DNA of 64,000 bases from a virus, in IMG/VR virus record IMGVR_UViG_3300027868_000008. One strand, 5' to 3'. The notes under the pieces were generated by a model. The model was not told where the DNA came from. It saw only the letters and a program-made list of their open reading frames with translations, and did no database searches. Each line of letters begins with the position of its first letter. Positions within the stretch are counted from its first letter, which is position 1. The translations under genes were made by a program, and so were the position numbers. This document shows positions 8,497-44,440 of this stretch, one piece after another.

Positions 8497-8850
8497 CTAG
8501 CAGCGCTGCGCACGCATTGCGCCAGCAATTGCCGTCGTGAGTTGTCGTTTCGCCGCTACGGCAAGTTTCTGTGCCTGTGCCGTACTGCCACAACGGACAG
8601 ATTTCGGTGTTCCGATGACTTGGCCGCGGCCGGAAGCAGGCCAGTAATCCGCAATATGCATAGCACCGAGATAGAATTGCCAGTGTCGAAATGCTTTTAC
8701 TGGAAGCAGCTCCGAGGCGGGATCGGTCTGAACGATATGAATCCGCTCAAACGCCAGCTCCGTCATCAGGGACGGCAGCTCCCGTTGAGCTGTCGCCAGA
8801 CGCTGGTGACGGAGTAGCTTCTTCGACGTCGACATTGTGTGGTTGGTCAT
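8497..8850 (-). CDS. hypothetical protein
   Basis: 117 aa ORF, overlaps hldE-like C-terminus. Confidence 0.3.
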   Translation of the reverse strand: MTNHTMSTSKKLLRHQRLATAQRELPSLMTELAFERIHIVQTDPASELLPVKAFRHWQFYLGAMHIADYWPASGRGQVIGTPKSVRCGSTAQAQKLAVAAKRQLTTAIAGAMRAQRC

Positions 8851-29351: not shown

Positions 29352-29412
29352 TCTTTCTCCTTGTCACTGAGTTCCTGTTGCAGCTTGACGCGACGCAAGA
29401 GCTTTATTCGAG

Positions 29413-29497
29413 CGGAACGGGTAGGATTTGAACCTACGTGACTTTCGTCAACTTGTTTTCAAGACAAGGGCCTTTAGCCAGACTCGGCCACCGTTCC
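29413..29497 (-). tRNA. tRNA-Ser (anticodon TGA), type II with long variable arm
   Basis: Hand fold: acceptor GGAACGG/CCGTTCC, anticodon loop CTTGAAA, variable hairpin, T-arm GTAGGTTCAAATCCTAC. Confidence 0.7.
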
Positions 29498-29499
29498 GT

Positions 29500-29620
29500 C
29501 GGCGTGTCGATCAGTGAGTAATCTCGAACCCGACCGACACGCCTTTTGTTGGCGTGCGAAGTTCTCGGCATCCGTTGTTGGCGTCACGGATGAACGACGC
29601 CTATGGTTGCTTCGCACGCC
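29500..29620 (-). ncRNA. structured spacer between tRNA-Ser and tRNA-Val (nested hairpins; possible degenerate tRNA or processing element)
   Basis: GGCGTGTCG..CGACACGCC and GGCGTGCGAAG..CTTCGCACGCC stems; TTCGAGA T-loop-like. Confidence 0.3.
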
Positions 29621-29623
29621 AGT

Positions 29624-29697
29624 AGGCGAGGAGGGACTTGAACCCACGACCGTCCGGATGTAAGCCGGAAGCTCTGCCAGCTGAGCTACTCGCCTAT
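29624..29697 (-). tRNA. tRNA-Val (anticodon TAC)
   Basis: D-arm GCTCAGCTGGCAGAGC, anticodon loop CTTACAT, T-loop TTCAAGT. Confidence 0.6.
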
Positions 29698-29704
29698 CCT
29701 AGAG

Positions 29705-29777
29705 TGGTACGGGGTGGAGTTGAACCGCCGACACCTGGATTTTCAATCCAGTGCTCTACCTGCTGAGCTACCGCACC
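29705..29777 (-). tRNA. tRNA-Phe (anticodon GAA)
   Basis: Acceptor GGTGCGG/CCGTACC, D-arm GCTCAGCAGGTAGAGC, anticodon loop TTGAAAA, T-loop TTCAACT. Confidence 0.7.
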
Positions 29778-30355
29778 TTTTCATCCACGACATAGCCGTG
29801 GTGCTCTAGCACTTCTTTACACAGCTGCAAGAATGCGTCGACAGACATGTCTGCTTTGGCCTTGTTTGCTGCGCTGCAAGCGATACCGAGATTATCTGCC
29901 TCACAGCTACCGCCATCCGCTCGCGGTACGATGTGGTCAAAATGGTACGTTTTTGGTTGCGACAGGTCGATAGGGCGTCCGGTCAAATAACAGGTAGTCG
30001 TCTCCCCGTATTTTTCACGAACAGTGGCTGCTGTGAGCGTATAGCTGCCGCGCTTACCGTAGCGATTACCGTTGACACGTTTACGTTGAAAGTCCCTACG
30101 CTTGTTATGCAGGCGTTGGCTGTCAGTTGTTTTGGCTTCGGGTACATGCTGACGCTTTGCGGGTCGGTTCTTGAAGTTGTCGCACTTCTTGAGCAGGACG
30201 TCATTACGGCGGTAATGCTGCTGGCGGCGCTGCGCTTTGGCTTTCTGTCCCTTGCCGCAATGATATGCAACTGTGCCTTTAGAGCATCCGAGCTCTGCGG
30301 TGATGCGGTTATAGGACCACCCCTTTGCGCGCAGCGCTAGTATCTGTTCTTGCAT
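29768..30355 (-). CDS. HNH homing-type endonuclease with N-terminal HTH
   Basis: N-terminal GWSYNRITAELGCSKGTVAYHC (HTH); C-terminal CYLTGRPIDL...HFDHIVPRADGGS...DNLGIACSAANKAK HNH motif; stop abuts tRNA-Phe 5' end. Confidence 0.75.
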   Translation of the reverse strand: MQEQILALRAKGWSYNRITAELGCSKGTVAYHCGKGQKAKAQRRQQHYRRNDVLLKKCDNFKNRPAKRQHVPEAKTTDSQRLHNKRRDFQRKRVNGNRYGKRGSYTLTAATVREKYGETTTCYLTGRPIDLSQPKTYHFDHIVPRADGGSCEADNLGIACSAANKAKADMSVDAFLQLCKEVLEHHGYVVDEKVR

Positions 30356-30417
30356 ACTTTGCTCCTTACCCCAAGCATAGCATGTTTAGGGTACGAAGAA
30401 AAGAGCAAGAAATTAAG

Positions 30418-30489
30418 CGAGCCATAGAGGAGTCGAACCCCTTCTTGCAGATCCGTAATCTGCCGTGCGATCCATCACACTCATAGCCC
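30418..30489 (-). tRNA. tRNA-Arg (anticodon ACG)
   Basis: Acceptor GGGCTAT/ATGGCTC (two G.U), anticodon loop TTACGGA, T-loop TTCGACT. Confidence 0.55.
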
Positions 30490-30491
30490 AC

Positions 30492-30563
30492 AACCCGGCC
30501 AAGACTTGAACTTGGAACCTCAGGGACCAAAACCCTGCGCTCTGCCAATTGAGCTACCGGGTA
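30492..30563 (-). tRNA. tRNA-Gln (anticodon TTG)
   Basis: D-arm GCTCAATTGGCAGAGC, anticodon stem CAGGG/CCCTG loop TTTTGGT, T-arm CCAAGTTCAAGTCTTGG. Confidence 0.7.
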
Positions 30564-30570
30564 CCGTTGT

Positions 30571-30843
30571 TCATACAGGCCCGTTGGGCAACTTGAAGAT
30601 TGCCAGCGCTGTGCCGATAACACCCGAAAGGACTACGGCCCATCCAGCCGCTCCGTAAGCAACGCACTGGATAAAACTCTCTTCGGTATTCGGGTTCACC
30701 CAGCCGACGAACCCGCACAGCAGCGATAACACCAGTACCACCAGGATACCGATGACGCCGCCAGCGAAGCCGACTAGCGCCGTAATGGCGCGGTCTGTCC
30801 ATACGCTGTTCATCGCATCTCCGTACTGTGGCCAAGTCGCCAC
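30571..30843 (-). CDS. small membrane protein (two TM segments)
   Basis: 90 aa, hydrophobic. Confidence 0.45.
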   Translation of the reverse strand: MATWPQYGDAMNSVWTDRAITALVGFAGGVIGILVVLVLSLLCGFVGWVNPNTEESFIQCVAYGAAGWAVVLSGVIGTALAIFKLPNGPV

Positions 30844-31043
30844 GCTTCGTACCCGGGGTGCTTGTAGCTCCGGTTTCTGTTGGCCATGTACCTGTCCAAG
30901 CTGCTCGCCTGGCAGGACGCCACCTTGACGCTACCAGGCGTAGCGTTGCCGCCCGGGCCCAGGCCCCTGTTTCTGCGCTTCCACTCGTGCTTGTAGGCCT
31001 TCCTGGCCTTCTCCTTGTCAGCTTTCGTCTGCTGCAATGCCAC
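30810..31043 (-). CDS. hypothetical basic protein
   Basis: 77 aa ORF. Confidence 0.3.
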   Translation of the reverse strand: MALQQTKADKEKARKAYKHEWKRRNRGLGPGGNATPGSVKVASCQASSLDRYMANRNRSYKHPGYEAWRLGHSTEMR

Positions 31044-31353
31044 GGTCGCTCTCCTTTTTTAGCTCTGGAAGGGTGAGCATGGCTACGTTCAGCCGTTGCT
31101 CTGTTTCTCTCCGGACGTTCGCCGCGGTCTCCGGCGTAGGGTCATCAAACATGTCCCTGAGGTGGGCGGCACGTTCCCGTCGATACAACGCCTGTAGCGC
31201 TGTGATCTGGCTCTGATGCTTGCGGTTGTCTGCCTCGTAGTTGGCACGCAAGGTCTCGAGAGCAGCGGTAAGCCGTGCAACCTCGCAGGTTTGCTTGACT
31301 AGCGCTTCGCGGCGACGACGGTTAGCGATTGCCTGCTTTATGGCGAAAAGCAT
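31018..31353 (-). CDS. coiled-coil hypothetical protein
   Basis: 111 aa ORF. Confidence 0.4.
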   Translation of the reverse strand: MLFAIKQAIANRRRREALVKQTCEVARLTAALETLRANYEADNRKHQSQITALQALYRRERAAHLRDMFDDPTPETAANVRRETEQRLNVAMLTLPELKKESDRGIAADES

Positions 31354-31583
31354 TGCTTGTCCATCTCCTTGGCCTGGCGCTCAATATCGTCGTTGTGCGC
31401 GCGTCGCCGCCGCCTGAGCAGTTCAGCCGTGTATCGACCACACTCGCACCTGCACATGTGCGCCATTACGACGGGATCCAAATTGTACCGCCAGTTGAAC
31501 TCGTCTTTGGGCTGCCGCAAGAACTGCCACCAGACCCAGATCCGCATCCATAGCGGCGTCCGCTTGTTCCAGATGCGTGTCAT
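31338..31583 (-). CDS. hypothetical protein (Trp/Cys-rich)
   Basis: 81 aa ORF with 4-nt overlaps. Confidence 0.35.
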   Translation of the reverse strand: MTRIWNKRTPLWMRIWVWWQFLRQPKDEFNWRYNLDPVVMAHMCRCECGRYTAELLRRRRRAHNDDIERQAKEMDKQCFSP

Positions 31584-32299
31584 TCATCGGCCTCCCCGGC
31601 AGATTGGTGCGCCGCGGCCCAAGCTTGCTCCTGCTCCGCCAGCTGCTGCTCCAGCTGTCGCTCCAGCTGTTCGATCCTGCGATCCTTGGCTGCAAGCAGC
31701 TCATTGGCCTCATTGGCGATGTCTCGTGCGGGATTCGGGATCTTTACGAGCTCCAGCAGCCGATTGAACTGGGCCGTCATCGCGCGAATACGCGCATCTG
31801 TTGCCGCCTGATGGGCAAGCAGCGCGCCGCGCTCTGCGTCCCAAGTCTTGGGCGTATCCGTATCGGGTGCAACTGCTACCTGCGCACGCACGGCTTCGAG
31901 CGTTACCCCGAGGCCCGTCAGCACCTGGGCCGCGACGCCTTCCTGCTCGCGCAGCAGGCCGATCAGGACCTGCTCGGTGCTCACGTAGTTGAACTCGGTA
32001 ACTCGGGCCTCCCCTTGCGCGTACTCGATGACCCTTTTAGCCCTGGGCGTTTGCGGTAGCTTGCCCACGGTGCCCATGTCGGGCCCGCTATGCATAAGCT
32101 TCTCTACCTCGAGCCGGACTTTCCGCGGATCGACGTCGAGGTTCTTCAGTATGTTGACTGCGACCTCGCCGTCCCCTTTGACCAGCCCAAGCAGGATGTG
32201 CTCGGTGCCGATGTATTCGTGATTGAACCGCTGCGCCTCTTTGTTGGCCCGCTGGAACAACCTCCTCGCATCATCTGTGAACCGCTCGTACATGAGCAT
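31580..32299 (-). CDS. Clp N-terminal (Clp_N) double-repeat domain protein with C-terminal coiled coil
   Basis: Two repeats of ERFTDDARRLFQRANKEAQRFNHEYIGTEHILLGL-type ClpA/B/C N-domain signature; no AAA+ module. Confidence 0.7.
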   Translation of the reverse strand: MLMYERFTDDARRLFQRANKEAQRFNHEYIGTEHILLGLVKGDGEVAVNILKNLDVDPRKVRLEVEKLMHSGPDMGTVGKLPQTPRAKRVIEYAQGEARVTEFNYVSTEQVLIGLLREQEGVAAQVLTGLGVTLEAVRAQVAVAPDTDTPKTWDAERGALLAHQAATDARIRAMTAQFNRLLELVKIPNPARDIANEANELLAAKDRRIEQLERQLEQQLAEQEQAWAAAHQSAGEADE

Positions 32300-32410
32300 C
32301 TCCTTTAGTCATTCAAGTAGGTAAGTGGCGCTCTCAGCCCTCTCTGGTACACACCGCCGCTCCTCAACGCCATCGTCCAGCCCAAGCGGCCCCGTGATCT
32401 GGATTCCCAA

Positions 32411-32485
32411 TAGTCCGGGTAGGATTCGAACCTACAACCGCCCGGTTTTGAGCCGGGCCGCTCTGCCAATTGGACGCACCGGACC
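32411..32485 (-). tRNA. tRNA, anticodon CAA (Leu-type codon UUG) but short variable arm
   Basis: T-arm GTAGGTTCGAATCCTAC, anticodon stem CCCGG/CCGGG loop CTCAAAA, D-loop CAATTGGCAG with 3-bp D-stem. Confidence 0.5.
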
Positions 32486-32489
32486 GTAG

Positions 32490-32563
32490 TGGCCCAGGTG
32501 GGATTCGAACCCACAGCATCCCGGATTTTAAGTCCAGGTGGTCTGCCACTTGCCTACTGGGCA
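32490..32563 (-). tRNA. tRNA, anticodon TAA (Leu-type codon UUA), short variable arm, non-canonical D-arm
   Basis: T-arm GTGGGTTCGAATCCCAC, loop CTTAAAA, variable GATGCT; paralog of 32736..32809. Confidence 0.45.
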
Positions 32564-32568
32564 TCGAG

Positions 32569-32642
32569 TAGGCCGAACAGGAGTCGAACCCGCACTGGCT
32601 AGGCCCTCGACCTAGCGCCTCTGCCAATTGGGCTATCGGCCC
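32569..32642 (-). tRNA. tRNA, anticodon GAG (Leu-type codon CUC), short variable arm
   Basis: Acceptor GGGCCGA/TCGGCCT, D-loop AATTGGCAG, anticodon loop TCGAGGG (C33), T-loop TTCGACT. Confidence 0.4.
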
Positions 32643-32645
32643 CAA

Positions 32646-32735
32646 TGGGAAATGGAGGAGTCGCACCTCTTGGTGACCGCCCGACATAATGCCAACAGAT
32701 TTACAGTCTGCCGTCGGGAACATCGCCCTGCTGAA
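32646..32735 (-). pseudogene. degenerate tRNA-Tyr-like element (anticodon GTA)
   Basis: GTTCCCGA...CAGACTGTAAATCTG matches bacterial tRNA-Tyr 5' half; D-arm truncated, T-loop TGCGACT, acceptor pairing poor. Confidence 0.35.
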
Positions 32736-32809
32736 TGGCTCAGGTGAGATTCGAACTCACAGCATCCCTGGTTCTAAGCCAAGGTGGTCTGCCAGTTGCC
32801 TACCGAGCC
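32736..32809 (-). tRNA. tRNA, anticodon TAG (Leu-type codon CUA), short variable arm
   Basis: Acceptor GGCTCGG/CTGAGCC, loop CTTAGAA, variable GATGCT, T-arm GTGAGTTCGAATCTCAC. Confidence 0.45.
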
Positions 32810-32841
32810 GGCTTCTGCCGGTTCTACGCTGCAGTCAGCTC

Positions 32842-33201
32842 TCAGATGGCCACGGGTGTACCGTCCGGGCCTTCGAGCTGTATCATTGTAGGGCATCGTT
32901 TCGGGATTACAAAGGCCGCAAAGCGAAAACCCTTGCCTTCGGTTGGGCGCTCATGCAGCGCTGTGGCGAAGCTCATGTTGTCGACACCGAGGGGCATTGC
33001 TGGCCCCCAGTAGACAGCATCAAGGTGGTTGGTGTAATGCCCGCCGCTTTTCTTGCAGCTACATGTCCGTGTCTCGCTTCGCAGCTTGACAATGTCGCCG
33101 CAGGCATCACAAAAGAGCAATTTCAAGTGCTGGTTCCTTGCTGCTGTCGTTGATGGTGGGCCTCGACCTCGGCAATGCGTACCTTGCGGCAAGCAGGGCA
33201 A
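32842..33201 (-). CDS. Cys-rich hypothetical protein (start probably internal/alternative)
   Basis: 119 aa ORF; overlaps upstream gene by about 80 nt. Confidence 0.35.
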   Translation of the reverse strand: MPCLPQGTHCRGRGPPSTTAARNQHLKLLFCDACGDIVKLRSETRTCSCKKSGGHYTNHLDAVYWGPAMPLGVDNMSFATALHERPTEGKGFRFAAFVIPKRCPTMIQLEGPDGTPVAI

Positions 33202-33551
33202 AGCGATTTAAGCCATCGCGGCCCGCATGCCTTGACGTCATCAGCACTGCCGCAGACCTCGCAAACCTTGTATGCTTGCGCCTCGGCCGCCGATATTAGA
33301 TCGTGGACTGCTGAGCTAGCGGCGCCAACGTAGAAGCGCAGGCCGCCGAACTTCTCCTTAATCTGGAAGATCGCGACGTCCTCGCTGTTAGGCTGCGCCG
33401 TAATGTCGGCGCACAGCTTGTCGAGCAGGTCGTACCACCCGTCGCCGCAACCAACTCCGTCCACCATACGCGTTTGTTGCGTATCGCCGTGGCGGTCGCG
33501 GAAGAGCCCCGGGTACTTAGTGAACAGTTGCTGCTCCAGTTCCTCTCTCAT
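33123..33551 (-). CDS. hypothetical protein (CxxC pairs)
   Basis: 142 aa ORF. Confidence 0.45.
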   Translation of the reverse strand: MREELEQQLFTKYPGLFRDRHGDTQQTRMVDGVGCGDGWYDLLDKLCADITAQPNSEDVAIFQIKEKFGGLRFYVGAASSAVHDLISAAEAQAYKVCEVCGSADDVKACGPRWLKSLCPACRKVRIAEVEAHHQRQQQGTST

Positions 33552-33722
33552 CTCGAATCCTCACTCTCCTTAGGTTACGTAAAGGCGGTGATGCCTGCGA
33601 CACACGGTTGAAGTGGCCCGCAGACCAGCGATTGCACCACTTAATCAGGTACGGCGCGCTGAGTTTGATGTCTGGATGTTCGTGGTCATGGCCTTTGCTC
33701 AGGTCAATGGCTTTGAGCGAGA

Positions 33723-34313
33723 TCATGTCCACATGGACCGGTAAATGGCAACAAGCCTGTGCATGTGTCGCTTCAGCGAGTTCTCCACGGCTATGTCATA
33801 GAAGCTGTACCACTCTGACAGCTCCTTAGCGCGCTGCGCGTCTTCGGGTATGCCATACGTCGGTTTCCACTGGCATATCCCGGGCCTATCGGGTATGTCC
33901 TGAAAGTGGCTAATCAGGTCGAGCTTCTCTCGTTCTTCGTGGATGTACTCAGCGAGCTCCTCGTACCTCTTGTTGTACTTCTTGTGCCACCAGTCATAGA
34001 GCTCCTGCATCTCGTCGCGGACGTACTTCTCTTCGCCGGCCACAGTGATCATGTGCGCATTCTCGCCGTACCACTCTACGTGGCCATCAGGGCCGCACTC
34101 TCCTTCGATGAACTGCGACAGTATCTCGAACATCATGTGTGGCAAGATGACGCAGCGGTCATGCCAGGTGTGCGACAGGTACCGTGGCTTGATCGTGGTG
34201 TGGCGCTTCCATGCCCAGCACTTGAAGCTGTACCACAGGTTTGCCGGGTGATACCATGGCCGGCAGATACGCTTGAAGCCCTTCCAGAATCCGTCAGCAA
34301 TCACTACGTCCAT
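33723..34313 (-). CDS. hypothetical protein (Trp/His-rich)
   Basis: 196 aa ORF. Confidence 0.45.
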   Translation of the reverse strand: MDVVIADGFWKGFKRICRPWYHPANLWYSFKCWAWKRHTTIKPRYLSHTWHDRCVILPHMMFEILSQFIEGECGPDGHVEWYGENAHMITVAGEEKYVRDEMQELYDWWHKKYNKRYEELAEYIHEEREKLDLISHFQDIPDRPGICQWKPTYGIPEDAQRAKELSEWYSFYDIAVENSLKRHMHRLVAIYRSMWT

Positions 34314-34628
34314 GGTTTACTCCTCTTTGGGTAGGGGCGCATTCTCCCAGCCATTAACATGGCACATCTGAGCAGCTGCACAGTATAGGCATCGGCGGCG
34401 GGGTGGCAGTGATCCAAGGATCTTCACCCATTCGTGAAAACCCAGGCGGCACAGCACCCACTGAATAGCAGCACCAATATGGTTAGTCATCTGTGTTTGG
34501 TGGGCGGCTTCCGGAAACTCCACTTCGGGTCGAAGCCCTTGGCCTCAACGTCAGATCCTGCCCCGCCGACGCGATTACGTCGTAGTAGTCCTTGAAGTCG
34601 CTGATGATCTGCATGCTTTCCTCGCAGG

Positions 34629-34932
34629 TTAGGCTTTGCCGGCGTTTTCGAGCACCTCAGTGAGGGTTTGTGCGTTTAGTGAGTAGATAATTGCTGCATG
34701 TACCCGCTTGCAGTAGGCCTCCGAGCCTGCCGCCAAAATGATTTGGCAATCGTCTACGCTGCGGAACCAGGCGCGGATGATCCACAGATCTGGGTCATTA
34801 ACCGACAGGCCAGGCGGCATGTTGTCTACATCATGCGGCGCCTTGTTTGCCGTATCGTACGCGTCGATAGTGATCAGATCGAAGCCATTGAGATCAGTCA
34901 GTGTGTCACCCTCAAGGGCGATCCAGTTTGCC
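34629..34932 (-). CDS. hypothetical protein
   Basis: Start moved to MANWIALEG with AAAAAGGAGAG RBS; track ORF N-terminus runs through tRNA-Pro. Confidence 0.45.
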
Positions 34933-34973
34933 ATGTGTCTCTCCTTTTTGTAGTGATTGTAAAGTCGGGCATG

Positions 34974-35047
34974 CTGGATTTGAACCAGCGCCTTCCTGCT
35001 CCCAGAGCAGGCGGGATACCAGGCTTCCCCAATGCCCGAGAAATACC
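34974..35047 (-). tRNA. tRNA-Pro (anticodon TGG)
   Basis: Acceptor CGGGCAT/ATGCCCG, D-stem GGGA/TCCC, loop TCTGGGA, T-arm GCTGGTTCAAATCCAGC. Confidence 0.75.
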
Positions 35048-35054
35048 CGGGGCT

Positions 35055-35089
35055 CCCCTTCGGTAGGAAGGAGCCCCGGGCCAAACCAC
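35055..35089. terminator. strong GC hairpin CCCGGGGCTCC-N13-GGAGCCCCGGG
   Basis: 11-bp perfect stem; on minus strand followed by TATTTCT; between palindromic element and tRNA-Pro. Confidence 0.4.
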
Positions 35090-35112
35090 GAATGGTCGTA
35101 GTTTCGTTGATT

Positions 35113-35128
35113 TTGTTCAGCTGAACAA
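35113..35128. promoter_or_regulatory. TTGTTCagctGAACAA palindromic element (copy 3 of 4)
   Basis: Perfect 16-bp palindrome; flanks GATTTTG...GGTTCAGCTAGAC resemble copy 4. Confidence 0.5.
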
Positions 35129-35989
35129 GGTTCAGCTAGACTCGCGTCGTCTCCGCAACGTCTCTTCCTCCAGCTTGTGGATCCATCTGTGGATCTCCAT
35201 TGCAAAAGTCTCTGATGGTGGGTAGAAAGCCCGGAAGCCCCGGGCGTGGCGTGGTAGTGCGCTACTAGCTGAACAGGGCCTCAAAGGCCTCAACGGCTGC
35301 AGGCTGCGGTCCGCGCGACACAGTGCCGCGTGGGCGCGAAATTGCGCGACGATTCCGTCGTGCTGGTCGCCGAGTAGGACCAACGCTCCGGAAGGTTTGT
35401 CGTGCGACCCAGCAATCTTCACAAAGGTCGCCGTACGGGCCAGTAGGCTGGCCACACTTACATGGCATCAGAAGTCTTCGGTCCTCTCTGGGTTGTAGAA
35501 AAAGGCGCTGCTTGGATGCGCGCCCTGGGCTGTACTAACCCTCTGGGCATCCATGAACACTTTCGACACACGGCCAGCCGACGATGTTGCCCCATAGGTG
35601 TTCAGAACCGGACTGAATCAACGGGTTCGGATCGGACTGGCCTTCCCCTACTATGCGTGATTCCTGTCGGATTGCCTTTCGGCCAGCGTCTGTAGAAAGA
35701 AGCGTCGGCTTGGCCCTCGGGGTCCTCAGAAAGGCCCTCTCTCCAAGCACAGATGCTTCGGGTTGCGCCGACTGTCGCAGAGCCCTTACATCCGTTTTTA
35801 AGCCGCTCGCGAACATAGTCCCGCTACCGTCGGCGATAGGGACGAGTTCTGTTCGCTTGAGCTCACTTGCCAGTAGACACGACACTTTACGTACGAAAGA
35901 GTGGAGCATACGTGTTTTGGCAAGAACACGTATGCTCGTATATACTGTAGAGGGAGTAGTGTCTCAAAAATCGGTTCGGCTTGCACAAG

Positions 35990-36570
35990 CGCCGGTGGCG
36001 CTTGGCCGGGATTCGAACCCGTTACAGACCTCCATGCCTTCTCGTTTAGTCAAAGGTCACCGATAAGTGCCCCTGCCGGGTTCGAACCGGCGTCTCCGGG
36101 TGTCCGCCCGGTGTCCTGCCCATTGGACGATTAAGGGACTGGAGTCCGCCCCACGCTAACCTAGTGGAGCGGACTGGTTTCGATACTAGCACTGATGCGT
36201 GCCACATCCTGTATCCGTTTAAGCCGTGGTTTTAGTCTGTCAAACAGATTGTATTACCGTTATACGACCCGGGCTTGTGGGTTGGTTAGCGAGTGCCCGG
36301 GGGAGAGAATCGAACTCCCATCCATGTGTTGTCATGGCACGGCGCTTGATGATGTGGCTGACTGTATCGGGGTTGTCAGCTTGGAGCGAGAATCTGGGTC
36401 TGATGGGCAATGCCTTGCCTCGACCACTGGGCTAGCCGGTGTGATTGTGACCTGACATCCTCATGGAACGTCAGGGAGTATGTTAGTCACCGGCCCTGGG
36501 ACTCGAACCCAGGCTCAAAGGCATGCGCCTCTTAGCCTCAATCTCAGTCTAAGCTTCGAAAAGCCATCAG
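35990..36570 (-). ncRNA. unresolved cluster of tRNA-like / structured RNA elements
   Basis: Minus-strand T-loop signatures at about 36005-36025, 36078-36096, 36301-36317 and 36490-36507; complementary acceptor halves could not be paired by eye. Confidence 0.3.
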
Positions 36571-37325
36571 CCTTCCGGCTGTGGCGTTGCTCCTTCGCAA
36601 ATGAAGTCGAAGATCGGCTTGCCGACCTTGTACGACGTAACTTCCATTTCGTTGGCCTTCTGTCGGGCGAACTTGACTGCGTCGTGCAGCTTCGTCACCC
36701 GCTCGACCATTTCACTGCGCTTCTGCGCCTGCATTGCGCCGGACAGGTGGACGGTGTGCCACCAACCGACGATCTCGTCCTCGTGGAACTCGTTGACCTG
36801 GGCCGGATGATGCTCCGTAGCCTCGGACAATACGTGCGCCTTCGGGACGCGCTTGGTTTTGCTTGTCTCCTCCGTCTTCGACTTGAAGCAGCCGTGCTCG
36901 GTGCTCCATACCCACTCCTTCTCCGGCGGCAGAAGCGGTAGCTTCGAGATGAACGTCCGGATGTCTTCCAACTGCTTGTCCAGGAAGAGCAGATTGGTAA
37001 CCGGAACGTCGCGCAGGATGACCTTGCCGTTGACGACAACATGGGCCGTCGCAGTGCAGTTGTTATAGTCTTGTGTGGCGACCGTGTCAAACAGGTCTGT
37101 CATGGCATCCGCCACCTGCTTGACCGCATGTGCGACCTGCATCTGCACGCCACGGGACTCCGGCGGAAGATCTACGCCCTCGTCATCGATGGGCCTGTAC
37201 TCGCGGGTGATGCCTGAGAACAGGGTGTCCTTCTGGATCCTGTGGTACACCTCGGTGATCTTCGCCTGGGTGCGTTTCTTCTTGCCGTTCGTTACGGCGA
37301 CAATCTGACTCAACTTTGTGGGCAT
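36567..37325 (-). CDS. hypothetical protein
   Basis: Start at MPTKLSQIV; 252 aa. Confidence 0.5.
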   Translation of the reverse strand: MPTKLSQIVAVTNGKKKRTQAKITEVYHRIQKDTLFSGITREYRPIDDEGVDLPPESRGVQMQVAHAVKQVADAMTDLFDTVATQDYNNCTATAHVVVNGKVILRDVPVTNLLFLDKQLEDIRTFISKLPLLPPEKEWVWSTEHGCFKSKTEETSKTKRVPKAHVLSEATEHHPAQVNEFHEDEIVGWWHTVHLSGAMQAQKRSEMVERVTKLHDAVKFARQKANEMEVTSYKVGKPIFDFICEGATPQPEG

Positions 37326-37335
37326 TGTGGCCCTC

Positions 37336-37605
37336 CTACTGCTGCTGCTCAACTTCTGGGTTGGCCGACTCTTGGCCTACTGTAACCTCGGTGGTGTTTC
37401 CCCGAGTGTCGCTGCGTACTCGCAGGTTGTCAATGGCTTCGGCTGCCGCGTAGTAGTGCCCCATAGCGAAGCCAGCCATCGCGCTGGCGTAGCTATTGAT
37501 ACGGCGCATACCGCCCGACCAGGTCTCAAAGTCATCAAGTTGGTAGTCTTCTGCTGGCGGTTCTCGCCAAAGACGTGACAGGGTCCAGCGGATAACCGCG
37601 TACAC
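37336..37605 (-). CDS. hypothetical protein
   Basis: 89 aa ORF. Confidence 0.35.
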   Translation of the reverse strand: MYAVIRWTLSRLWREPPAEDYQLDDFETWSGGMRRINSYASAMAGFAMGHYYAAAEAIDNLRVRSDTRGNTTEVTVGQESANPEVEQQQ

Positions 37606-37716
37606 CCGCCATAGCCACCATTTCGGTTGGTACCGCAGTTGCCGCCATGCCTTGATGTACCATGGCTGGAACTGGTGCCACAGTCAAACACCCACATTTG
37701 CTGGGCGAAACGTAAA

Positions 37717-37789
37717 CAGCCCGCTCAGGACTTGAACCTGAAACACCATGCTCCAGAGGCATGCGCTCTGCCGATTGAGCTAGCGGGCG
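37717..37789 (-). tRNA. tRNA-Gln (anticodon CTG)
   Basis: D-arm GCTCAATCGGCAGAGC, anticodon stem CATGC/GCATG loop CTCTGGA, T-arm TCAGGTTCAAGTCCTGA. Confidence 0.6.
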
Positions 37790-37994
37790 ATGCTATAACG
37801 CCGTCCGAAGTCGGAATTGGCTTCGGGGCCTTGTATGCCCCTACGCCAATCACCCCTCGGCCATCCGGTTGCGACCCCTCCGCGCTCGCCATAAGCCGAC
37901 GTTACAGGAGGACAATTCTAACCATAGCATGTTTTAAGTGGTTACTGGTTGTCCCTGGCTCCCCGGCACTGTGTGCCGGCGGTGTGTGTGTATG

Positions 37995-38069
37995 TGACCC
38001 GTGGGGGATTTGAACCCCGCGTTGCCGGCGTGAAAGGCCGGTGTCCTAGACCGACTAGACGAACGGGCC
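37995..38069 (-). tRNA. tRNA-Glu (anticodon TTC)
   Basis: Acceptor GGCCCGT/ACGGGTC, anticodon stem CCGGC/GCCGG loop CTTTCAC, T-loop TTCAAAT. Confidence 0.65.
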
Positions 38070-38072
38070 AGG

Positions 38073-38143
38073 CAAGACGGCAAGGAGTCGAACCTCATCT
38101 TTGCAGTTTGGAACCGCAAGCCGCTCCCAGGCGGACCGCCTTT
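38073..38143 (-). tRNA. tRNA-Trp (anticodon CCA)
   Basis: Acceptor AAGGCGG/CCGTCTT, D-stem CCGC/GCGG, loop TTCCAAA, T-loop TTCGACT. Confidence 0.55.
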
Positions 38144-38234
38144 TCTTTACATCAAGGTCTTGAAATGATTGAACAGCACCAGCCGCGGCGCCGGTGGCAG
38201 GGCCACGGATACGGCTTTCGGCCTACGATTACGG

Positions 38235-38420
38235 TCATGATCTACTGCAGGCCCCGCATATGGAGCAGAGCAGCGGCCAGTTGCTTTCTTTGCCCTGCGG
38301 CCAGTCACGGAACATCCAGCGGTGTTGGCAATGGTCCTGCGTACGACGCGACAACACCACAACGCCCACGATCCCGCACGCACCGCGGTAGAATCGATGC
38401 ACTACTTTTCTCATCACTGT
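38235..38420 (-). CDS. small Cys-rich hypothetical protein
   Basis: 60 aa; GAAAGGAG RBS; immediately downstream of tRNA-Asp on minus strand. Confidence 0.4.
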   Translation of the reverse strand, partial: TVMRKVVHRFYRGACGIVGVVVLSRRTQDHCQHRWMFRDWPQGKESNWPLLCSICGACSRS

Positions 38421-38430
38421 ACTCCTTTCA

Positions 38431-38500
38431 GCGCCCCCAGGAGAATTGAACTCCTGCCTCCGCGTCGACAGCGCGGCGCCCTACCATTAGGCTAGGGGGC
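38431..38500 (-). tRNA. tRNA-Asp (anticodon GTC)
   Basis: D-stem GCCT/GGGC, anticodon stem CCGCG/CGCGG loop CTGTCGA, T-arm AGGAGTTCAATTCTCCT. Confidence 0.55.
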
Positions 38501-38501
38501 C

Positions 38502-38529
38502 GACTCGAACACGCCTTGACGTTCGAGTC
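38502..38529. terminator. hairpin GACTCGAAC-N10-GTTCGAGTC between small basic-protein gene and tRNA-Asp
   Basis: 9-bp perfect inverted repeat. Confidence 0.35.
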
Positions 38530-38542
38530 TGTCCGTACGTTC

Positions 38543-38761
38543 CTAGCGCCGCTTCTCTTTCTGCTTGGCCTTGGCGTCCTTCTTCGCGTCCTTCGCGGAC
38601 ACCTTTGGCTTCTTGGGAGCGGCCTTGATGACGTCTTTGCCGCAGGAGGTACATCGTTCCCCGCCTACGGTCCCCACGCGTGTTCTGTTCACCACACGCA
38701 TGCCAGGACCGTATCTGTCATCCTGCCACGCATTACGGCAAACGCATTTCGTAATCGGCAT
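38543..38761 (-). CDS. small zinc-ribbon protein with lysine-rich basic tail
   Basis: 72 aa; C..C...C..C pattern then KKPKVSAKDAKKDAKAKQKEKRR; AAGGAG RBS. Confidence 0.55.
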   Translation of the reverse strand: MPITKCVCRNAWQDDRYGPGMRVVNRTRVGTVGGERCTSCGKDVIKAAPKKPKVSAKDAKKDAKAKQKEKRR

Positions 38762-38931
38762 CCGGGTCTCCTTTGTTGTGATTGTTAAGAGCGGATCGGG
38801 TTTGCACCGATACTTGTGGACGTACGAGAGTAGTCTCGTGGCGCTCCATACCCACGCTGCTGGCTCCTACGGCGCGTTATCATAGGCCTACATATGGCCC
38901 ACACTTGCCGGGCTTGCCACCGCTCTGAGGT

Positions 38932-39004
38932 CGGACGAGAAGGAGTTGAACCTCCGACTTCATCCTTATCAGGGATGCGCTCTACCAACTGAGCTATCGT
39001 CCGC
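38932..39004 (-). tRNA. tRNA-Ile (anticodon GAT)
   Basis: Acceptor CGGACGA/TCGTCCG, D-arm GCTCAGTTGGTAGAGC, loop CTGATAA, T-loop TTCAACT. Confidence 0.7.
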
Positions 39005-39138
39005 AGGCAGCAAGCAGCCGGCTCGACCAGCTGCTTGCCGCCATCAAAGATGTCAAAACACGAAGTTGCCTCAAAAAGTTGGCAGGCGGCCCGAGCACAT
39101 CGAGCCGCCTGCCGGGTCCTCCAACCCTAGGAGAAATT

Positions 39139-40032
39139 CTAGCGGCCGCGCCCGCCTGCAGCTGCGCGTGCCTGTGTTTCAACAGCGGCCTGGAGCGTAG
39201 ACAGTGCCTGACGGTTCGAGGAAGCCTCGACTGCCGCCGTAGCGACGTCCTTTGCGTCCTTCTGTGCTGTTGCCAGCTGATCCGCGAGCATTTCGATACG
39301 TGTCTGGAGCGATTGGACGTCGCCCGTCAGGTTCGTAATCGTTGCGGCTGCCAGCTGTGCTGCGGACTCGGCGTCCTTCTTCAGCAGCGCGCGCTCATGG
39401 CCAAATCCAGCCGTAAGCGTCTTGGTGGCCGCGTCCGTGGCCTCTTTTGCGGCTGTGGCGACCAGGTCCTCGATGCCGTCGACCTTGGTTTGCAGCTCTT
39501 CGGCTTTCTCTTCGCGCTCGGCGACGACGGCAACACGCGCGGCCAGATCCCTGTTGACGTCTTCCGTCCTGACTGCCTCTGCGCGTTGTGCCGTCGTGCG
39601 CGCGTCGTCAGCTTCTGCTGCAATGCGTTCTAGCCTACGGCCCTGCGCATATGTATGCTCTTCGCCGCGACGCTGCCACTCCTGGTCCTGCTCGGACCGG
39701 CGCAACGCAAACGCCTTGTCGGTGGCGGCCGCTGTCTCCGCAGCGCGCTCCTCCTCCTCTTCGATCTGCTGCTTGATGTTGGCAAGCGTGTCAGCATCCA
39801 TCTCGATCGAGTGGATCTCTTTTAGCTCATCCTTGCGGGCGGAGATCGCTGTCTCCAGCTGGGTGAGCTCTTCGATCTTGGTGGCCATGGACACGCCAAC
39901 GCCGGCTAGCGTGCCCTGCACGCTTACCTGTAGGTCGTTGAGCTGATCGAGTGTCTTCTTAACGTCGGCTTCCGACGTAGCAGCGAGCGCCGCTGCTGTT
40001 TCCACTGTTGTGCGCTTTTTGGCTCGTGCCAT
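39139..40032 (-). CDS. long coiled-coil protein (Ala/Glu/Gln-rich)
   Basis: 297 aa; AAGGAG RBS. Confidence 0.5.
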   Translation of the reverse strand: MARAKKRTTVETAAALAATSEADVKKTLDQLNDLQVSVQGTLAGVGVSMATKIEELTQLETAISARKDELKEIHSIEMDADTLANIKQQIEEEEERAAETAAATDKAFALRRSEQDQEWQRRGEEHTYAQGRRLERIAAEADDARTTAQRAEAVRTEDVNRDLAARVAVVAEREEKAEELQTKVDGIEDLVATAAKEATDAATKTLTAGFGHERALLKKDAESAAQLAAATITNLTGDVQSLQTRIEMLADQLATAQKDAKDVATAAVEASSNRQALSTLQAAVETQARAAAGGRGR

Positions 40033-40095
40033 CTCTGGAATCTACTCCTTTGGTGCACAATGAAAAACGGGCGACCAACACGGTCGCCCTGAAAG

Positions 40096-40168
40096 TGGCG
40101 CGGGGCAGACTCGAACTGCCGACTGCGTGGTTATGAGCCACGTGAGCTACCAACTGCTCTACCGCGCT
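40096..40168 (-). tRNA. tRNA-Met (anticodon CAT) with A1:C72 mismatch
   Basis: D-arm GAGCAGTTGGTAGCTC, anticodon stem CGTGG/CCACG loop CTCATAA, T-arm GGCAGTTCGAGTCTGCC. Confidence 0.65.
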
Positions 40169-40969: not shown

Positions 40970-41887
40970 TCATGTGCGCCGTAAGCGCGGGTCGAACGTG
41001 CTAGAAGTACCAAGATACTGTGTTCCGTACGCCTGGTCAACTAGAAACGGCTTTTCTGCGTCCGACATCCCGAAATCTGCTTCGGGAACATCCTTCGCCT
41101 CCAGCTCAACTATTGCCAGATCGTCACTGTGGACCGCGTCTGCCAGCGCCCTGAACTCCGCGGGCTCCAGGCTGCAATCGATGTGATGGACGAATGAGTG
41201 GCGGGACAGGCAGAAATGCCGCTCGACCATCTCAGCGCCCAGCTGTGCAGCCATGATTGATGACTTGATGCCCATCTCGTGCCCTGAGTAGCCAATACGG
41301 ATCCTATCTGACCCGAATAACCGCTTCAGCGTAGGGATGTTCTCCAGCCGAAGATAGAGGTCCGGGCACGGGTACACAGCGACACAGTGCAGGATCCAGA
41401 GCTTCTTGTGCTCCTCGAATATCGCGATCACCTGCTCGATCTCAGGCAGCGTGCAGCCAGCAACTGACAGCACGACCTCCCATGATACCGGCGTCTCTGC
41501 CGCAATCTGTCGCAGGACTTCTGGCTTATGCGCGTTCGTGGATGAGACCTTGATGCGCCGCCGTACTGAGTTTCCACGCAGGAATGCCATACTATCTGCA
41601 GTCTGCGCGGTAGCATACCACGGGATGTCCGCATAGCGGCACTCTGCGCTGAAGCGGTGCCAGTCACCATCATCGAGCTCGAACATGGTCCGATAGTCCC
41701 GATAGGTCTTCCCGAACGGGCTGGAATAGGGACTGTTCAGCTTTTCGGGGGTGTAGAACGACTTCACGTGCTTCTTCTGCATCTTGATGGTATCAGCGCC
41801 GGCCTGCTTGGCCGCTTTGACCATGCGGAGCAACAGCCCCATATGGCCCATGTGGTTTGTCGTAAACTCGGCTACGAGCTCAACCAT
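40970..41887 (-). CDS. neuB: N-acetylneuraminate (nonulosonic acid) synthase, NeuB/PseI/LegI family
   Basis: N-terminal VAEFTTNHMGHMGLLLRMVKAAKQAGADTIKMQK matches the NeuB TIM-barrel signature; 305 aa. Confidence 0.7.
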   Translation of the reverse strand: MVELVAEFTTNHMGHMGLLLRMVKAAKQAGADTIKMQKKHVKSFYTPEKLNSPYSSPFGKTYRDYRTMFELDDGDWHRFSAECRYADIPWYATAQTADSMAFLRGNSVRRRIKVSSTNAHKPEVLRQIAAETPVSWEVVLSVAGCTLPEIEQVIAIFEEHKKLWILHCVAVYPCPDLYLRLENIPTLKRLFGSDRIRIGYSGHEMGIKSSIMAAQLGAEMVERHFCLSRHSFVHHIDCSLEPAEFRALADAVHSDDLAIVELEAKDVPEADFGMSDAEKPFLVDQAYGTQYLGTSSTFDPRLRRT

Positions 41888-44172: not shown

Positions 44173-44440
44173 CTGGCTCCTTCTCCGCGGCGTCGGGGAC
44201 ACTTTGTAGGTGGTTGCGTGTTGCCGACAGGATCTGGCGGACATGTGATACCTGTTCAACGGTGACGCGATTGGCTGTCTCAAGCTTAGCGATATGCACC
44301 AGCTCTGCGACATCGCTACGTGCGGCGCAGATGAAACTAGCGATATCGCGGTCTACCGGAAAGCGTGGCAGTACCTTTTCCAGCGCATACAGCCGTTTAT
44401 GCGCCGCCCTACACAGCTTCAGCATATTACGCGCATTCAT
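44159..44440 (-). CDS. hypothetical protein
   Basis: Start at MNARNMLKL. Confidence 0.35.
   Translation of the reverse strand: MNARNMLKLCRAAHKRLYALEKVLPRFPVDRDIASFICAARSDVAELVHIAKLETANRVTVEQVSHVRQILSATRNHLQSVPDAAEKEPDEEV

Follow-up and report, generated by a model that had tools for sequence, protein, structure and literature searches.

The window, that is, the whole 64,000-nucleotide stretch of viral DNA analysed here (IMG/VR record IMGVR_UViG_3300027868_000008), carries a phage tRNA array of at least 16 tRNAs on the minus strand (29412..40168), detected with ARAGORN and Rfam. Four of them, located at 32411-32809 and also on the minus strand, have leucine anticodons: tRNA-Leu(CAA) (32411..32485, 75 nt), tRNA-Leu(UAA) (32490..32563, 74 nt; 32489-32563 in ARAGORN), tRNA-Leu(GAG) (32569..32642, 74 nt; the ARAGORN extent, 32568-32642, has one extra 3' base) and tRNA-Leu(UAG) (32736..32809, 74 nt). 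The preliminary description of this DNA had reported four tRNAs with these anticodons, and ARAGORN and Rfam agree on them. It had also proposed scoring with a covariance model, and had considered that automated folding might place the anticodons elsewhere. All four genes score well above the 29-bit gathering score of Rfam RF00005 (CAA, 47.1 bits; UAA, 44.1; GAG, 42.9; UAG, 43.4), with E-values of 6e-7 to 9e-6 in the 64-kb window and matches to model positions 1-71 of 71, and the two tools give the same anticodon position in each case. Note that most other tRNAs of the array score higher (52-72 bits) than these four (about 43-47 bits).

Besides the four Leu genes, the array contains Ser(UGA), Val(UAC), Phe(GAA), Arg(ACG)-like, Gln(UUG), Pro(UGG), Gln(CUG), Glu(UUC), Trp(CCA), Asp(GUC), Ile(GAU) and Met(CAU) tRNAs, with small ORFs interspersed among the tRNA genes. 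The spacers between the CAA, UAA and GAG genes are of just 4-5 nt each, and CCA is encoded neither in the UAG gene nor elsewhere in the set. The 93-nt spacer between GAG and UAG holds a degenerate tRNA-like sequence (32647..32728, minus strand), seen as a sub-threshold Rfam match, which has an intact anticodon arm, CAGA-CUGUAAA-UCUG, with the Tyr anticodon GUA. We considered it as a hidden tRNA-Tyr and rejected it: its match to the tRNA-Sec model (15.9 bits, E = 0.51) is below threshold, ARAGORN makes no call in the spacer even at relaxed thresholds, and the spacer folds no better than shuffled sequence (z = +0.69). This element may be a decayed tRNA and was not counted as a functional part.

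Since their total length is only 74-75 nt, the four Leu genes are without a long variable arm, and none has the long variable stem-loop (>10 nt) of type-II tRNALeu. The variable loops are all of 5 nt (CAA, CGGUU; UAA, AUGCU; GAG, CCAGU; UAG, AUGCU). The preliminary description was thus right about the short loops, although not about their range of 5-6 nt. The GATGCT that it had noticed is indeed shared by the UAA and UAG genes, but not as a 6-nt loop: since its G pairs with position 26 as the sixth pair of the anticodon stem, the loop proper is AUGCU. Common to all four genes are A73 and G18G19, two of the identity elements singled out for inspection at the outset, together with U8, AA at 14/15 and the U48 that ends the variable loop, while G3·U70 occurs in none. 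The T-loop is intact and the anticodon loop has 7 nt in each of them, the acceptor, anticodon and T stems are well paired, and the four anticodons are complementary, none being repeated.

The UAA and UAG genes are paralogues (62/74 nt identical, 84%) and belong to what we call family B. The UAG gene has a G1:C72 pair, A73, a 6-bp anticodon stem, the anticodon loop CUUAGAA (with A37) and the T-loop UUCGAAU. It is identical at 71 of 74 nt to the Leu(tag) genes of the metagenome tRNA arrays L225, L238, L242 and L246, and what separates it from these relatives includes a compensated T-stem pair. The UAA gene, with A73 and the anticodon loop CUUAAAA, carries a U1·C72 mismatch and is the only member of family B in which 1:72 is unpaired. 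This mismatch could impair processing by RNase P or binding of EF-Tu, and the UAA copy may have lost part of its function through it. In both paralogues the D-stem is weak, with two Watson-Crick pairs, and the D-arm layout of tRNALeu is degraded.

The GAG gene, a member of family A, has G1·U72, A73, the variable loop CCAGU and two G·U pairs in the T-stem. Its D-arm, GCCC-AAUUGGCAG-AGGC, shows a C13·A22 mismatch and a AAUUGGCAG loop. Over its full length it is 78.7% identical to the 74-nt Leu(gag) gene of phage Myrna, tRNA-Leu gene 82. Position 33 is a near-universal U in tRNAs; the anticodon loop of the GAG gene, UCGAGGG, has C33 there, followed by G37. The same C33 loop recurs in L011 and in many array genes. 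Since about one in two of the type-I Leu(GAG) genes carried in arrays has C33, this base is maintained and is no random defect.

A third family, A-like, is represented by the CAA gene, which has G1·U72, A73, the anticodon loop CUCAAAA, the variable loop CGGUU, a D-stem of 3 bp (C10:G25, G11:C24, U12·G23) and an enlarged AAUUGGCAG loop. Its acceptor and T arms are shared with the tRNA-Leu(caa) of Pseudomonas phage KoPa-4, and the metagenome genes closest to it are type-I Leu(taa) with the D-arm UACGCCAAYUGGCAGAGCGG. As occurs in the long-arm tRNALeu of our data set, of which L009 tag (GUGA-AAUUGGUAG-ACAC) is an example, the D-arms of GAG and CAA have a stem of 3 bp, are mismatched at 13·22 and carry an AAYNGGYAG loop. 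The D-arms had been described as atypical in all four genes; this stands for UAA and UAG, while those of GAG and CAA follow the tRNALeu layout. Compared with type-II tRNALeu, the genes of the window have in common A73, G1·U72 or G1:C72 and, in GAG and CAA, the D-arm; they differ in the variable loop, of 5 nt here against 13 or more. Family B, in addition, has lost most of the D-stem pairing and gained the sixth pair of the anticodon stem.

The tRNA bodies were then sought with the anticodon left free, families A and B being searched by sequence pattern: family A in bacterial genomes, and family B, with the pattern TAGGCAA N0-3 GGNAGACCA N18-19 ATGCTGTGNGTTCGAATC, in viral contigs and metagenomes. 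For family A, 122 matches were obtained from at least 120 loci of bacterial genomes, and 122/122 have a Leu anticodon (uaa 67, caa 26, uag 22, cag 3, gag 3, aag 1). These genes are of 73-77 nt, with A73 in 109 of 110 unique sequences, and in most loci they are the single tRNA in 8 kb. By record label, about 106 of the at least 120 loci are from Actinomycetota, including a Streptomyces Leu(caa) (L132). For family B there were 16 matches in 11 viral contigs, all with Leu anticodons; the metagenomes added 85 unique matches, from at least 119 loci (85/85 Leu). Viral matches overall were likewise exclusively Leu (24/24), with the tRNA bodies present in 19 viral contigs; note that the Leu-only counts treat three ARAGORN 'SeC(tca)' calls as mis-registered CAA. 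The reading of these three (L016, L018 and L183) as opal suppressors was discarded, since a gap-free comparison with the Leu(caa) of L020 gives the anticodon CAA: they share its loop, with a 31·39 mismatch, and the call is a register error of ARAGORN.

The two families differ in context. Family B sits almost exclusively in arrays (111 of the 119 metagenome loci hold at least 3 tRNAs), and among the viral contigs and metagenome loci scanned it was never found as a chromosomal singleton. In the metagenome arrays, type-I-length Leu genes number 202 unique sequences against 38 of type-II length, across the five main anticodons. The GAG gene of the window fits a pattern shared with chromosomal genes, the CAA gene is only A-like, and the UAA and UAG genes are of a kind found in viral and array contexts.

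These scans bear on one of the possibilities raised by the preliminary description, that the tRNAs receive another amino acid in place of leucine, the UUR, CUC and CUA codons being mistranslated or reassigned. Their structure is indeed unlike that of the textbook bacterial tRNALeu, and the relatives that have been characterised biochemically do not include family B. Disagreement between body and anticodon has a precedent in the tRNAProX of Streptomyces. Another is reported for the V-arm tRNAs of nematodes (PMC3333845). However, several hundred independent genes with the bodies seen here have only Leu anticodons, which is the opposite of the body/anticodon mismatch that defines mistranslating tRNAs. 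Moreover, A73 is present in all four genes and G3·U70 in none. SerRS and bacterial TyrRS need a long arm, and most other synthetases of the A73 type read the anticodon; here the determinants of the other synthetases are missing and the anticodon is a leucine one. In line with this, the closest relative that has been assayed is charged with leucine (PMC6614811). Recoding is, in our judgement, extremely unlikely.

A further possibility is that the four genes, or some of them, are pseudogenes in decay or tRNA-like RNAs with another use, for example as processing signals or regulatory fragments. Several features would fit: the U1·C72 of the UAA gene, unique in family B; the C33 and wobble-rich T-stem of GAG; Rfam scores under those of the neighbouring tRNAs; and the decayed tRNA-like relic in the same cluster. 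In addition, thermodynamic folding by itself fails to give the complete cloverleaf for the GAG and UAG genes, while the minimum free energy fold of CAA is near the cloverleaf, with acceptor, anticodon and T arms formed (z = -2.46). Against this, T-loops, 7-nt anticodon loops, A73 and the main stems are kept in all four, and the signs of a pseudogene, broken stems and lost core nucleotides, are absent from CAA and UAG; UAA has its U1·C72, and the C33 of GAG is conserved in many independent genes. A set of complementary anticodons without repeats, and compensatory substitutions in close relatives, including the T-stem pair of UAG, also speak against decay.

In support of this, both families show covariation. 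In family B, 97.5% of the stem cells are paired and double changes occur in 15 of 21 pairs; the extra pair, 26:44, covaries as well (CG 16, AU 2, UA 2, GC 1), and none of 500 shuffles reached the observed pairing or covariation score. In family A, 99.1% of the cells are paired, with double changes in 17 of 20 pairs. In these counts the D-stem columns, being invariant, are uninformative, and in family A they are partly fixed by the search pattern. Pairs were counted for each family separately and the joint alignment of A and B was left out: because of the extra pair in B, MAFFT had placed the 3' side of the anticodon stem one column apart in the two families. At the level of the families, then, the stems and their compensatory changes argue against the pseudogene or regulatory-RNA reading, which for the genes of the window we regard as very unlikely. 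The covariation comes from tRNA families and not from syntenic relatives, since no orthologous array was at hand.

Short-arm bacterial tRNALeu has been described before. The chromosomal type-I tRNALeu(CAA) of Streptomyces coelicolor, with the variable loop ACAGC, is leucylated in vitro by the LeuRS of this species (ScoLeuRS), for which a loop of 5 nt is the minimum for good activity and U8-A14 is a reported identity element; an attempt to knock out its gene failed (Fan et al. 2019, Nucleic Acids Res, PMC6614811). A short-loop tRNALeu(UAG) has also been noted in a Mycobacterium tRNA cluster (PMC6582537). In the searchable literature, short-arm bacterial tRNALeu appears only for S. coelicolor and in this passing remark on one Mycobacterium cluster. 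The genes of the window resemble the S. coelicolor tRNA in the 5-nt loop (ACAGC there, CCAGU in GAG), A73, U8-A14 and G18G19, the comparison with the ScoLeuRS identity elements being at the level of sequence. The GAG gene and the Streptomyces Leu(caa) of L132 fit the same family A pattern. The S. coelicolor tRNA coexists with long-arm isoacceptors and a single LeuRS; it is chromosomal and has one anticodon, whereas the window has four anticodons in a phage array, the two being compared here by description and not by alignment. The scaffold of UAA and UAG is more derived than the S. coelicolor type-I tRNALeu.

Animal mitochondria also have a type-I tRNALeu. The likeness to it is one of architecture and not of membership, and no specific sequence relationship was seen. 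Streptomyces type-I tRNALeu can be charged by human mitochondrial LeuRS but not by that of E. coli (PMC6614811). Conversely, ScoLeuRS does not charge human mitochondrial tRNALeu(UUR) (PMC6614811), so the mitochondrial and Streptomyces identity sets differ.

Closer counterparts are found in cultured actinophages, in which homologues of 74-76 nt, members of the sequence families described here, are routinely annotated as tRNA-Leu and lie in tRNA arrays. These phages include Myrna and Phabba of Mycobacterium, Pumpernickel of Microbacterium, Yappy of Curtobacterium and Forza of Gordonia, among others. The Leu(caa) of Yappy resembles the UAA and UAG genes in having the D-arm of family B and the AUGCU loop, and it shares their T-arm. 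When the UAG and GAG genes were used singly in blastn, all cultured hosts were actinobacteria, one more match being an uncultured virus; blastn of the UAG gene against plasmids gave no match. Compared with the cultured actinophages, the four-anticodon combination and the U1·C72 are specific to the window. Thus the four genes are real compact leucine tRNAs of an already described kind: the proposal that they were novel type-I Leu tRNAs was correct as to type, but S. coelicolor, Mycobacterium and the actinophages provide precedents.

The phage itself is only distantly related to Myrna, Phabba, Pumpernickel, Yappy and Forza, none of which gave a megablast match, and no match to the cluster was found by megablast among 50,697 phage records. 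The phage context is marked by a large terminase (26211-28091), an NAD-dependent ligase (19654-21762) and an SbcC-like protein (3417-5558). The terminase shares 28-31% identity with its counterparts in unrelated large phages. Similarity to actinophage proteins is weak: 38-45% identity for a DUF7873 protein (to Gordonia, Rhodococcus and Arthrobacter phage proteins) and 47% for the neighbouring Clp_N protein of 239 aa (to Myrna and Phabba proteins), with which a protein scan of the viral contigs found no match. No LeuRS-like domain was detected among the large ORFs tested in the window; a 932-aa ORF (44437-47235), considered as a LeuRS candidate, was rejected, as it has no Pfam or PHROG match.

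With good confidence we interpret the four genes as type-I leucine elongator tRNAs of compact form, to which an anticodon-blind host LeuRS would attach leucine. They would be expressed from the array transcript, probably a polycistronic precursor, and processed by host enzymes; since CCA is not encoded, the host CCA-adding enzyme must act on them. Bacterial LeuRS recognises tRNALeu independently of the anticodon, and the host leucyl-tRNA synthetase would therefore be expected to charge all four. Function depends on a permissive host LeuRS, since the E. coli enzyme cannot charge Streptomyces type-I tRNALeu. Together, the four would read UUG, UUA, CUC/CUU and CUA, leaving CUG to the host tRNALeu(CAG); CAG is the only Leu anticodon missing from the array set. 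The preliminary description had taken UUG, UUA, CUC and CUA to be rare codons in a high-GC host. In this phage, with a G+C content of 58%, they make up about 48% of the Leu codons, and 62% with CUU, that is, all but CUG; these values, and with them the codon-supply benefit, come from a crude ORF set and from phage codons only. The effect would be additional capacity for leucine decoding in phage translation late in infection, and possibly also when host tRNAs are depleted or attacked. As to their origin, the GAG gene would descend from the type-I tRNALeu that Actinomycetota normally carry as one chromosomal copy, while UAA and UAG would be duplicates of an array-borne scaffold whose anticodon was switched within the leucine box. 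Counting against the interpretation as leucine elongators are the derived core of family B (a D-stem with just two Watson-Crick pairs and an anticodon stem of 6 bp), the U1·C72 of UAA, the C33 and two T-stem G·U pairs of GAG, and the lower Rfam scores.

Another possibility could be that the compact Leu tRNAs are kept mainly as substitutes that are not recognised by host tRNA-targeting toxins (anticodon nucleases, VapC-type RNases or MenT-type nucleotidyltransferases), codon supply being secondary. Escape from such toxins would then account for the short variable loop, for the changes in the D-arm and for the C33 of GAG. Since the tRNAs would still be charged with leucine, this reading overlaps with that of leucine elongators. 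It is consistent with the near restriction of family B to tRNA arrays, with the excess there of type-I-length over type-II-length Leu genes and with the maintenance of C33 in array-borne type-I Leu(GAG). Escape of phage tRNAs with anticodon-loop changes from tRNA-targeting defences has been both proposed and shown (PMC10264068, PMC11555353). For the mycobacterial toxin MenT3, the long variable loop of tRNASer is a recognition element, but this toxin has no preference for tRNALeu (PMC11541572). Furthermore, since actinobacterial hosts have type-I tRNALeu on their own chromosomes, a short arm is not enough to mark a tRNA as foreign or protected. In these analyses the cluster could be linked to no defence or anti-defence gene, and no toxin is known to target tRNALeu through its variable arm. 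We consider evasion unlikely as the main reason for keeping these tRNAs, while giving it some weight.

A more specific proposal, which we hold to be decidedly doubtful, is that family B is a Leu tRNA lineage restricted to phages and arrays whose remodelled core, together with C33, is an adaptation that keeps charging by LeuRS while escaping host enzymes. The core features concerned, the two Watson-Crick D-stem pairs, the covarying sixth anticodon-stem pair and the invariant AUGCU, can only speculatively be assigned this role. It is just as tentative that the lineage spread across all leucine anticodons by duplication and anticodon switching, and that the enzymes escaped were those that attack or modify cellular tRNALeu.

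Taken by itself, the window carries little weight, as its four genes are ordinary phage-array genes that annotation pipelines already call tRNA-Leu. The finding of short arms was correct but mostly ordinary, since compact tRNALeu is normal in Actinomycetota and their phages. Short-arm tRNALeu thus looks like a regular feature of this group, and not a curiosity of Streptomyces, and readers of such genomes need not take it as an anomaly. Since Streptomyces type-I tRNALeu is not a substrate for the LeuRS of E. coli, the four genes are also a weak clue to the host of this uncultured phage, which most likely is an actinobacterium with a LeuRS that tolerates compact tRNALeu. Finally, the family B scaffold and the C33 of the GAG gene would be cheap substrates for testing what a bacterial LeuRS needs in its tRNA, and for asking whether host defences shape the tRNAs of phages.

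ARAGORN and the Rfam tRNA model called the same four leucine tRNA genes, all on the minus strand: tRNA-Leu(caa) at 32411-32485 (47.1 bits), tRNA-Leu(taa) at 32489-32563 (44.1 bits), tRNA-Leu(gag) at 32568-32642 (42.9 bits) and tRNA-Leu(tag) at 32736-32809 (43.4 bits). The covariance-model scores all exceed the gathering score of 29 (E-values of 6e-7 to 9e-6 for the whole window), and the residue-level Rfam alignments place the four anticodons where ARAGORN does. At 74-75 nt, these genes have no space for a long variable arm. The preliminary description, which had read four tandem tRNAs with CAA, TAA, GAG and TAG anticodons and no long arm, was thus borne out. The CAA, UAA and GAG genes are only 4-5 nt apart, 93 nt separate GAG from UAG, and none of the four encodes the CCA end. 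The array to which they belong (29412-40168) comprises at least 16 tRNAs, every one of them on the minus strand. The phage nature of the window, which has a G+C content of 58%, is indicated by its genes for a large terminase, a NAD-dependent ligase, an SbcC-like protein and a helicase.

The four genes are type-I Leu-decoding tRNAs, as had been proposed among other options, but not novel ones. They resemble the chromosomal type-I tRNALeu(CAA) of S. coelicolor, a known short-loop leucine tRNA with the 5-nt loop ACAGC (Fan et al., PMC6614811). The single S. coelicolor LeuRS leucylates this tRNA as well as the long-arm isoacceptors; good leucylation needs a variable loop of at least five nucleotides, and U8-A14 matters (PMC6614811). 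Human mitochondrial LeuRS charges it and E. coli LeuRS does not, this ability being conferred by the leucine-specific domain of the enzyme (PMC6614811). Moreover, a tRNALeu(UAG) with a short loop has been remarked on in a Mycobacterium tRNA cluster (PMC6582537), and a study of the M. tuberculosis toxin MenT3 singled out long variable loops for only three tRNALeu species (PMC11541572). Within the literature searched, we found no paper on compact leucine tRNAs in phages or on their breadth across Actinomycetota.

Megablast against phage records gave no match, and a sensitive blastn search matched short annotated tRNA-Leu genes of cultured phages, namely Mycobacterium phage Myrna (76 and 74 nt), Curtobacterium phage Yappy (75 nt), Microbacterium phage Pumpernickel (76, 75 and 75 nt) and Pseudomonas phage KoPa-4 (78 nt, CCA counted in). 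Note that Myrna also carries a 72-nt gene annotated as tRNA-Ser, to which ARAGORN gives a CUA anticodon. Two body families were defined: family A (UAGCCCAA..GGCAGAGGC ... CAGUGCGGGUUCGACUCC), which includes the window GAG gene, and family B (UAGGCAA..GGCAGACCA ... AUGCUGUGGGUUCGAAUC), which includes the UAA and UAG genes (84% identity between the two). The UAG gene matches genes in four metagenome tRNA arrays at 71 of 74 positions, the differences including a compensated T-stem pair. The CAA gene has acceptor and T arms in common with the KoPa-4 caa gene, and the metagenome relatives nearest to it make up a third, A-like family, whose D-arm is UACGCCAAYUGGCAGAGCGG.

Public collections were then scanned with patterns for both bodies in which the anticodon stem-loop was left as free N. 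The family A pattern was found in 8 viral contigs and at least 120 bacterial genome loci. All 122 bacterial matches listed (73-77 nt) have a Leu anticodon (uaa 67, caa 26, uag 22, cag 3, gag 3, aag 1), and 109 of the 110 unique sequences among them have A73. By record title, about 106 of the 120 records listed are Actinomycetota, with Gordonia, Nocardia, Rhodococcus, Corynebacterium, Mycobacterium, Amycolatopsis, Micromonospora, Nocardioides, Microbacteriaceae, Acidimicrobiales, Bifidobacterium and Streptomyces Leu(caa) among the matches; the others are chiefly Planctomycetota and a few other MAGs. Most family A genome loci listed have a single tRNA per 8 kb, which marks them as ordinary chromosomal genes, whereas family B lies in arrays. 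Its pattern gave 16 matches in 11 viral contigs and also hit no fewer than 119 metagenome loci, 111 of the 119 listed having three or more tRNAs; among those of at least 4 kb, 37 of 46 have five or more. Each of the 85 unique metagenome matches listed has a Leu anticodon (uag 32, cag 24, caa 10, gag 10, uaa 7, aag 1; the remaining one, labelled 'SeC(tca)' by ARAGORN, is a CAA read out of register). Such a body, seen with Leu anticodons alone and with all five main ones, fits an anticodon-blind LeuRS and is the opposite of a recoding tRNA. Charging with another amino acid, which the preliminary description had entertained, is thus extremely improbable: A73 is present, G3·U70 is absent, SerRS and TyrRS would find no long arm, and anticodon-reading enzymes would meet Leu anticodons. 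Family A compact Leu genes also occur in dense arrays (10-20 tRNAs within 8 kb) in a Rhodocyclaceae MAG (L135), a Myxococcota MAG (L129) and Actinokineospora soli (L076); two of these are MAGs of non-actinobacterial phyla, and the arrays could represent prophages, mobile tRNA arrays or phage contigs assigned to the wrong bin.

The tRNA structures of both families are under selection. In 21 family B sequences, 97.5% of cells are paired and 15 of 21 pairs changed on both sides, with a covariation score of 0.72 (0.20 in shuffles, and no more than 0.13 with partners slid). For the 50 family A sequences, from phages and bacteria, 99.1% of cells are paired and 17 of 20 pairs show double changes (0.78 against 0.19). 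The D-stem columns are invariant in both families, partly fixed by the search pattern in family A, and are neutral evidence. In the UAA and UAG genes, the shared GATGCT had been taken as a 6-nt variable loop; its first base instead forms a pair with the base preceding the anticodon stem, giving a 6-bp anticodon stem and the 5-nt loop AUGCU. In support of this, the extra pair covaries among the 21 family B relatives (CG 16, AU 2, UA 2, GC 1), and Rfam aligns these two bases as an inserted pair. The D-arms had been called atypical, which holds for UAA and UAG, where G10:C25 and G11:C24 are followed by two non-standard pairs in the Rfam alignment, but not for GAG and CAA. In the latter, a 3-bp stem and a 13·22 mismatch enclose an AAYNGGYAG loop (GCCC-AAUUGGCAG-AGGC in GAG), a leucine-type D-arm built as in long-arm tRNALeu of the same data (L009 tag, 87 nt, GUGA-AAUUGGUAG-ACAC; L008 caa, 85 nt, GCGA-AAUUGGUAG-ACGC). 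That some or all of the four are pseudogenes or, as also suggested earlier, regulatory RNAs is very unlikely, since covariation contradicts it for the families; it may still apply to the UAA copy, whose U1·C72 is the sole unpaired 1:72 cell of family B.

The spacer between Leu(GAG) and Leu(UAG) (32647-32728, minus) holds a tRNA-like relic with an intact anticodon arm, CAGA-CUGUAAA-UCUG (GUA, a Tyr anticodon), a T-arm-like GAGG-UGCGACU-CCUC, a partly paired acceptor and a truncated D region; the Rfam tRNA-Sec model scores it at 15.9 bits (E = 0.51), ARAGORN makes no call, and it folds no better than shuffled sequence. A 91-nt 'tRNA-???(gatg)' reported by default ARAGORN over tRNA-Gln(UUG) was resolved by Rfam (38.7 bits) and relaxed ARAGORN as a tRNA-Arg(ACG)-like gene of 69-72 nt with a 3-bp D-stem (30418-30489, minus), directly 3' of tRNA-Gln(UUG). 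A stretch at 36070-36137 (minus) is weakly tRNA-like (Rfam, 32.8 bits, just over threshold in a sensitive search): its anticodon loop has 6 nt and its acceptor stem is mismatched. It probably represents a degenerate member of the array. Bacterial tRNATyr is usually long-armed, about 85 nt, and in the same phage arrays (viral contigs L014, L016, L018, L020 and L023) tRNA-Tyr(GUA) genes measure only 73-80 nt, so variable-arm shortening there may extend beyond leucine. A jumbo-phage-sized 226-kb contig (L022/L191; IMGVR_UViG_3300017991_000049 = Ga0180433_10000027) has five compact Leu genes (caa, uaa, uag, cag, gag) adjoining tRNA-Pro(UGG); the window order is likewise Pro, Leu(UAG), Leu(GAG), Leu(UAA), Leu(CAA), and this contig may be a distant relative. 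The window also encodes a NeuB-family (sialic or nonulosonic acid synthase-like) protein (40970-41887, minus) and a match to a PHROG family annotated heptose kinase/adenylyltransferase (8747-10300, minus), sugar-metabolism genes reported as adjoining the array. Its largest uncharacterised protein, a 932-aa ORF (44437-47235, minus), matched neither Pfam nor PHROG at the thresholds used.

U33 is near-universal in tRNA anticodon loops, and the GAG gene has C33 (UCGAGGG). C33 recurs in compact tRNALeu(GAG) of the window (32569-32642), of comparison loci L011, L079 and L135 and of many metagenome loci (e.g. L167, L178, L246, L252), in loops UCGAGGG, UCGAGAG or CCGAGAA. Its recurrence in about half of array-borne type-I Leu(GAG) genes implies that it is maintained, and it looks like a conserved lineage trait, not an error. 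This frequency (as UCGAGAG or CCGAGAA), the near confinement of family B to arrays and the excess of compact over long-arm Leu genes in the arrays of the family B loci listed (202 versus 38) would also suit an escape of compact Leu tRNAs from host tRNA-targeting enzymes, which is compatible with leucine charging. We consider such evasion unlikely, because no toxin is known to pick tRNALeu by its long arm and the hosts themselves own compact tRNALeu.

On the best-supported reading, the four genes would be elongator tRNAs that the host LeuRS charges with leucine; the large ORFs of the window yielded no LeuRS. Together they would read UUG, UUA, CUC/CUU and CUA. The sole Leu anticodon absent is CAG, which reads CUG, the most frequent Leu codon; a rough collection of 75 ORFs gives CUG 38%, CUC 21%, CUU 14%, UUG 14%, CUA 11% and UUA 2%, so the four tRNAs would cover about 62% of the phage's own leucine codons. 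Family B genes for CUN codons mostly retain A37, the UUR-type base, and not G37, which fits recent anticodon switching on a duplicated scaffold. The host is likely actinobacterial, judging by sequence relatives: the closest tRNA relatives of UAG and GAG in cultured phages all have actinobacterial hosts, and two neighbouring proteins are, among cultured matches, most similar to proteins of Gordonia, Rhodococcus, Arthrobacter and Mycobacterium phages (38-47% identity). Against a firm host call, the terminase reaches only 28-31% identity with any cultured match.

Finally, three aspects of these tRNAs appear modestly new: the breadth of compact tRNALeu across Actinomycetota, the family B scaffold, nearly confined to arrays and with a sixth anticodon-stem pair, and the conserved C33 of tRNALeu(GAG).
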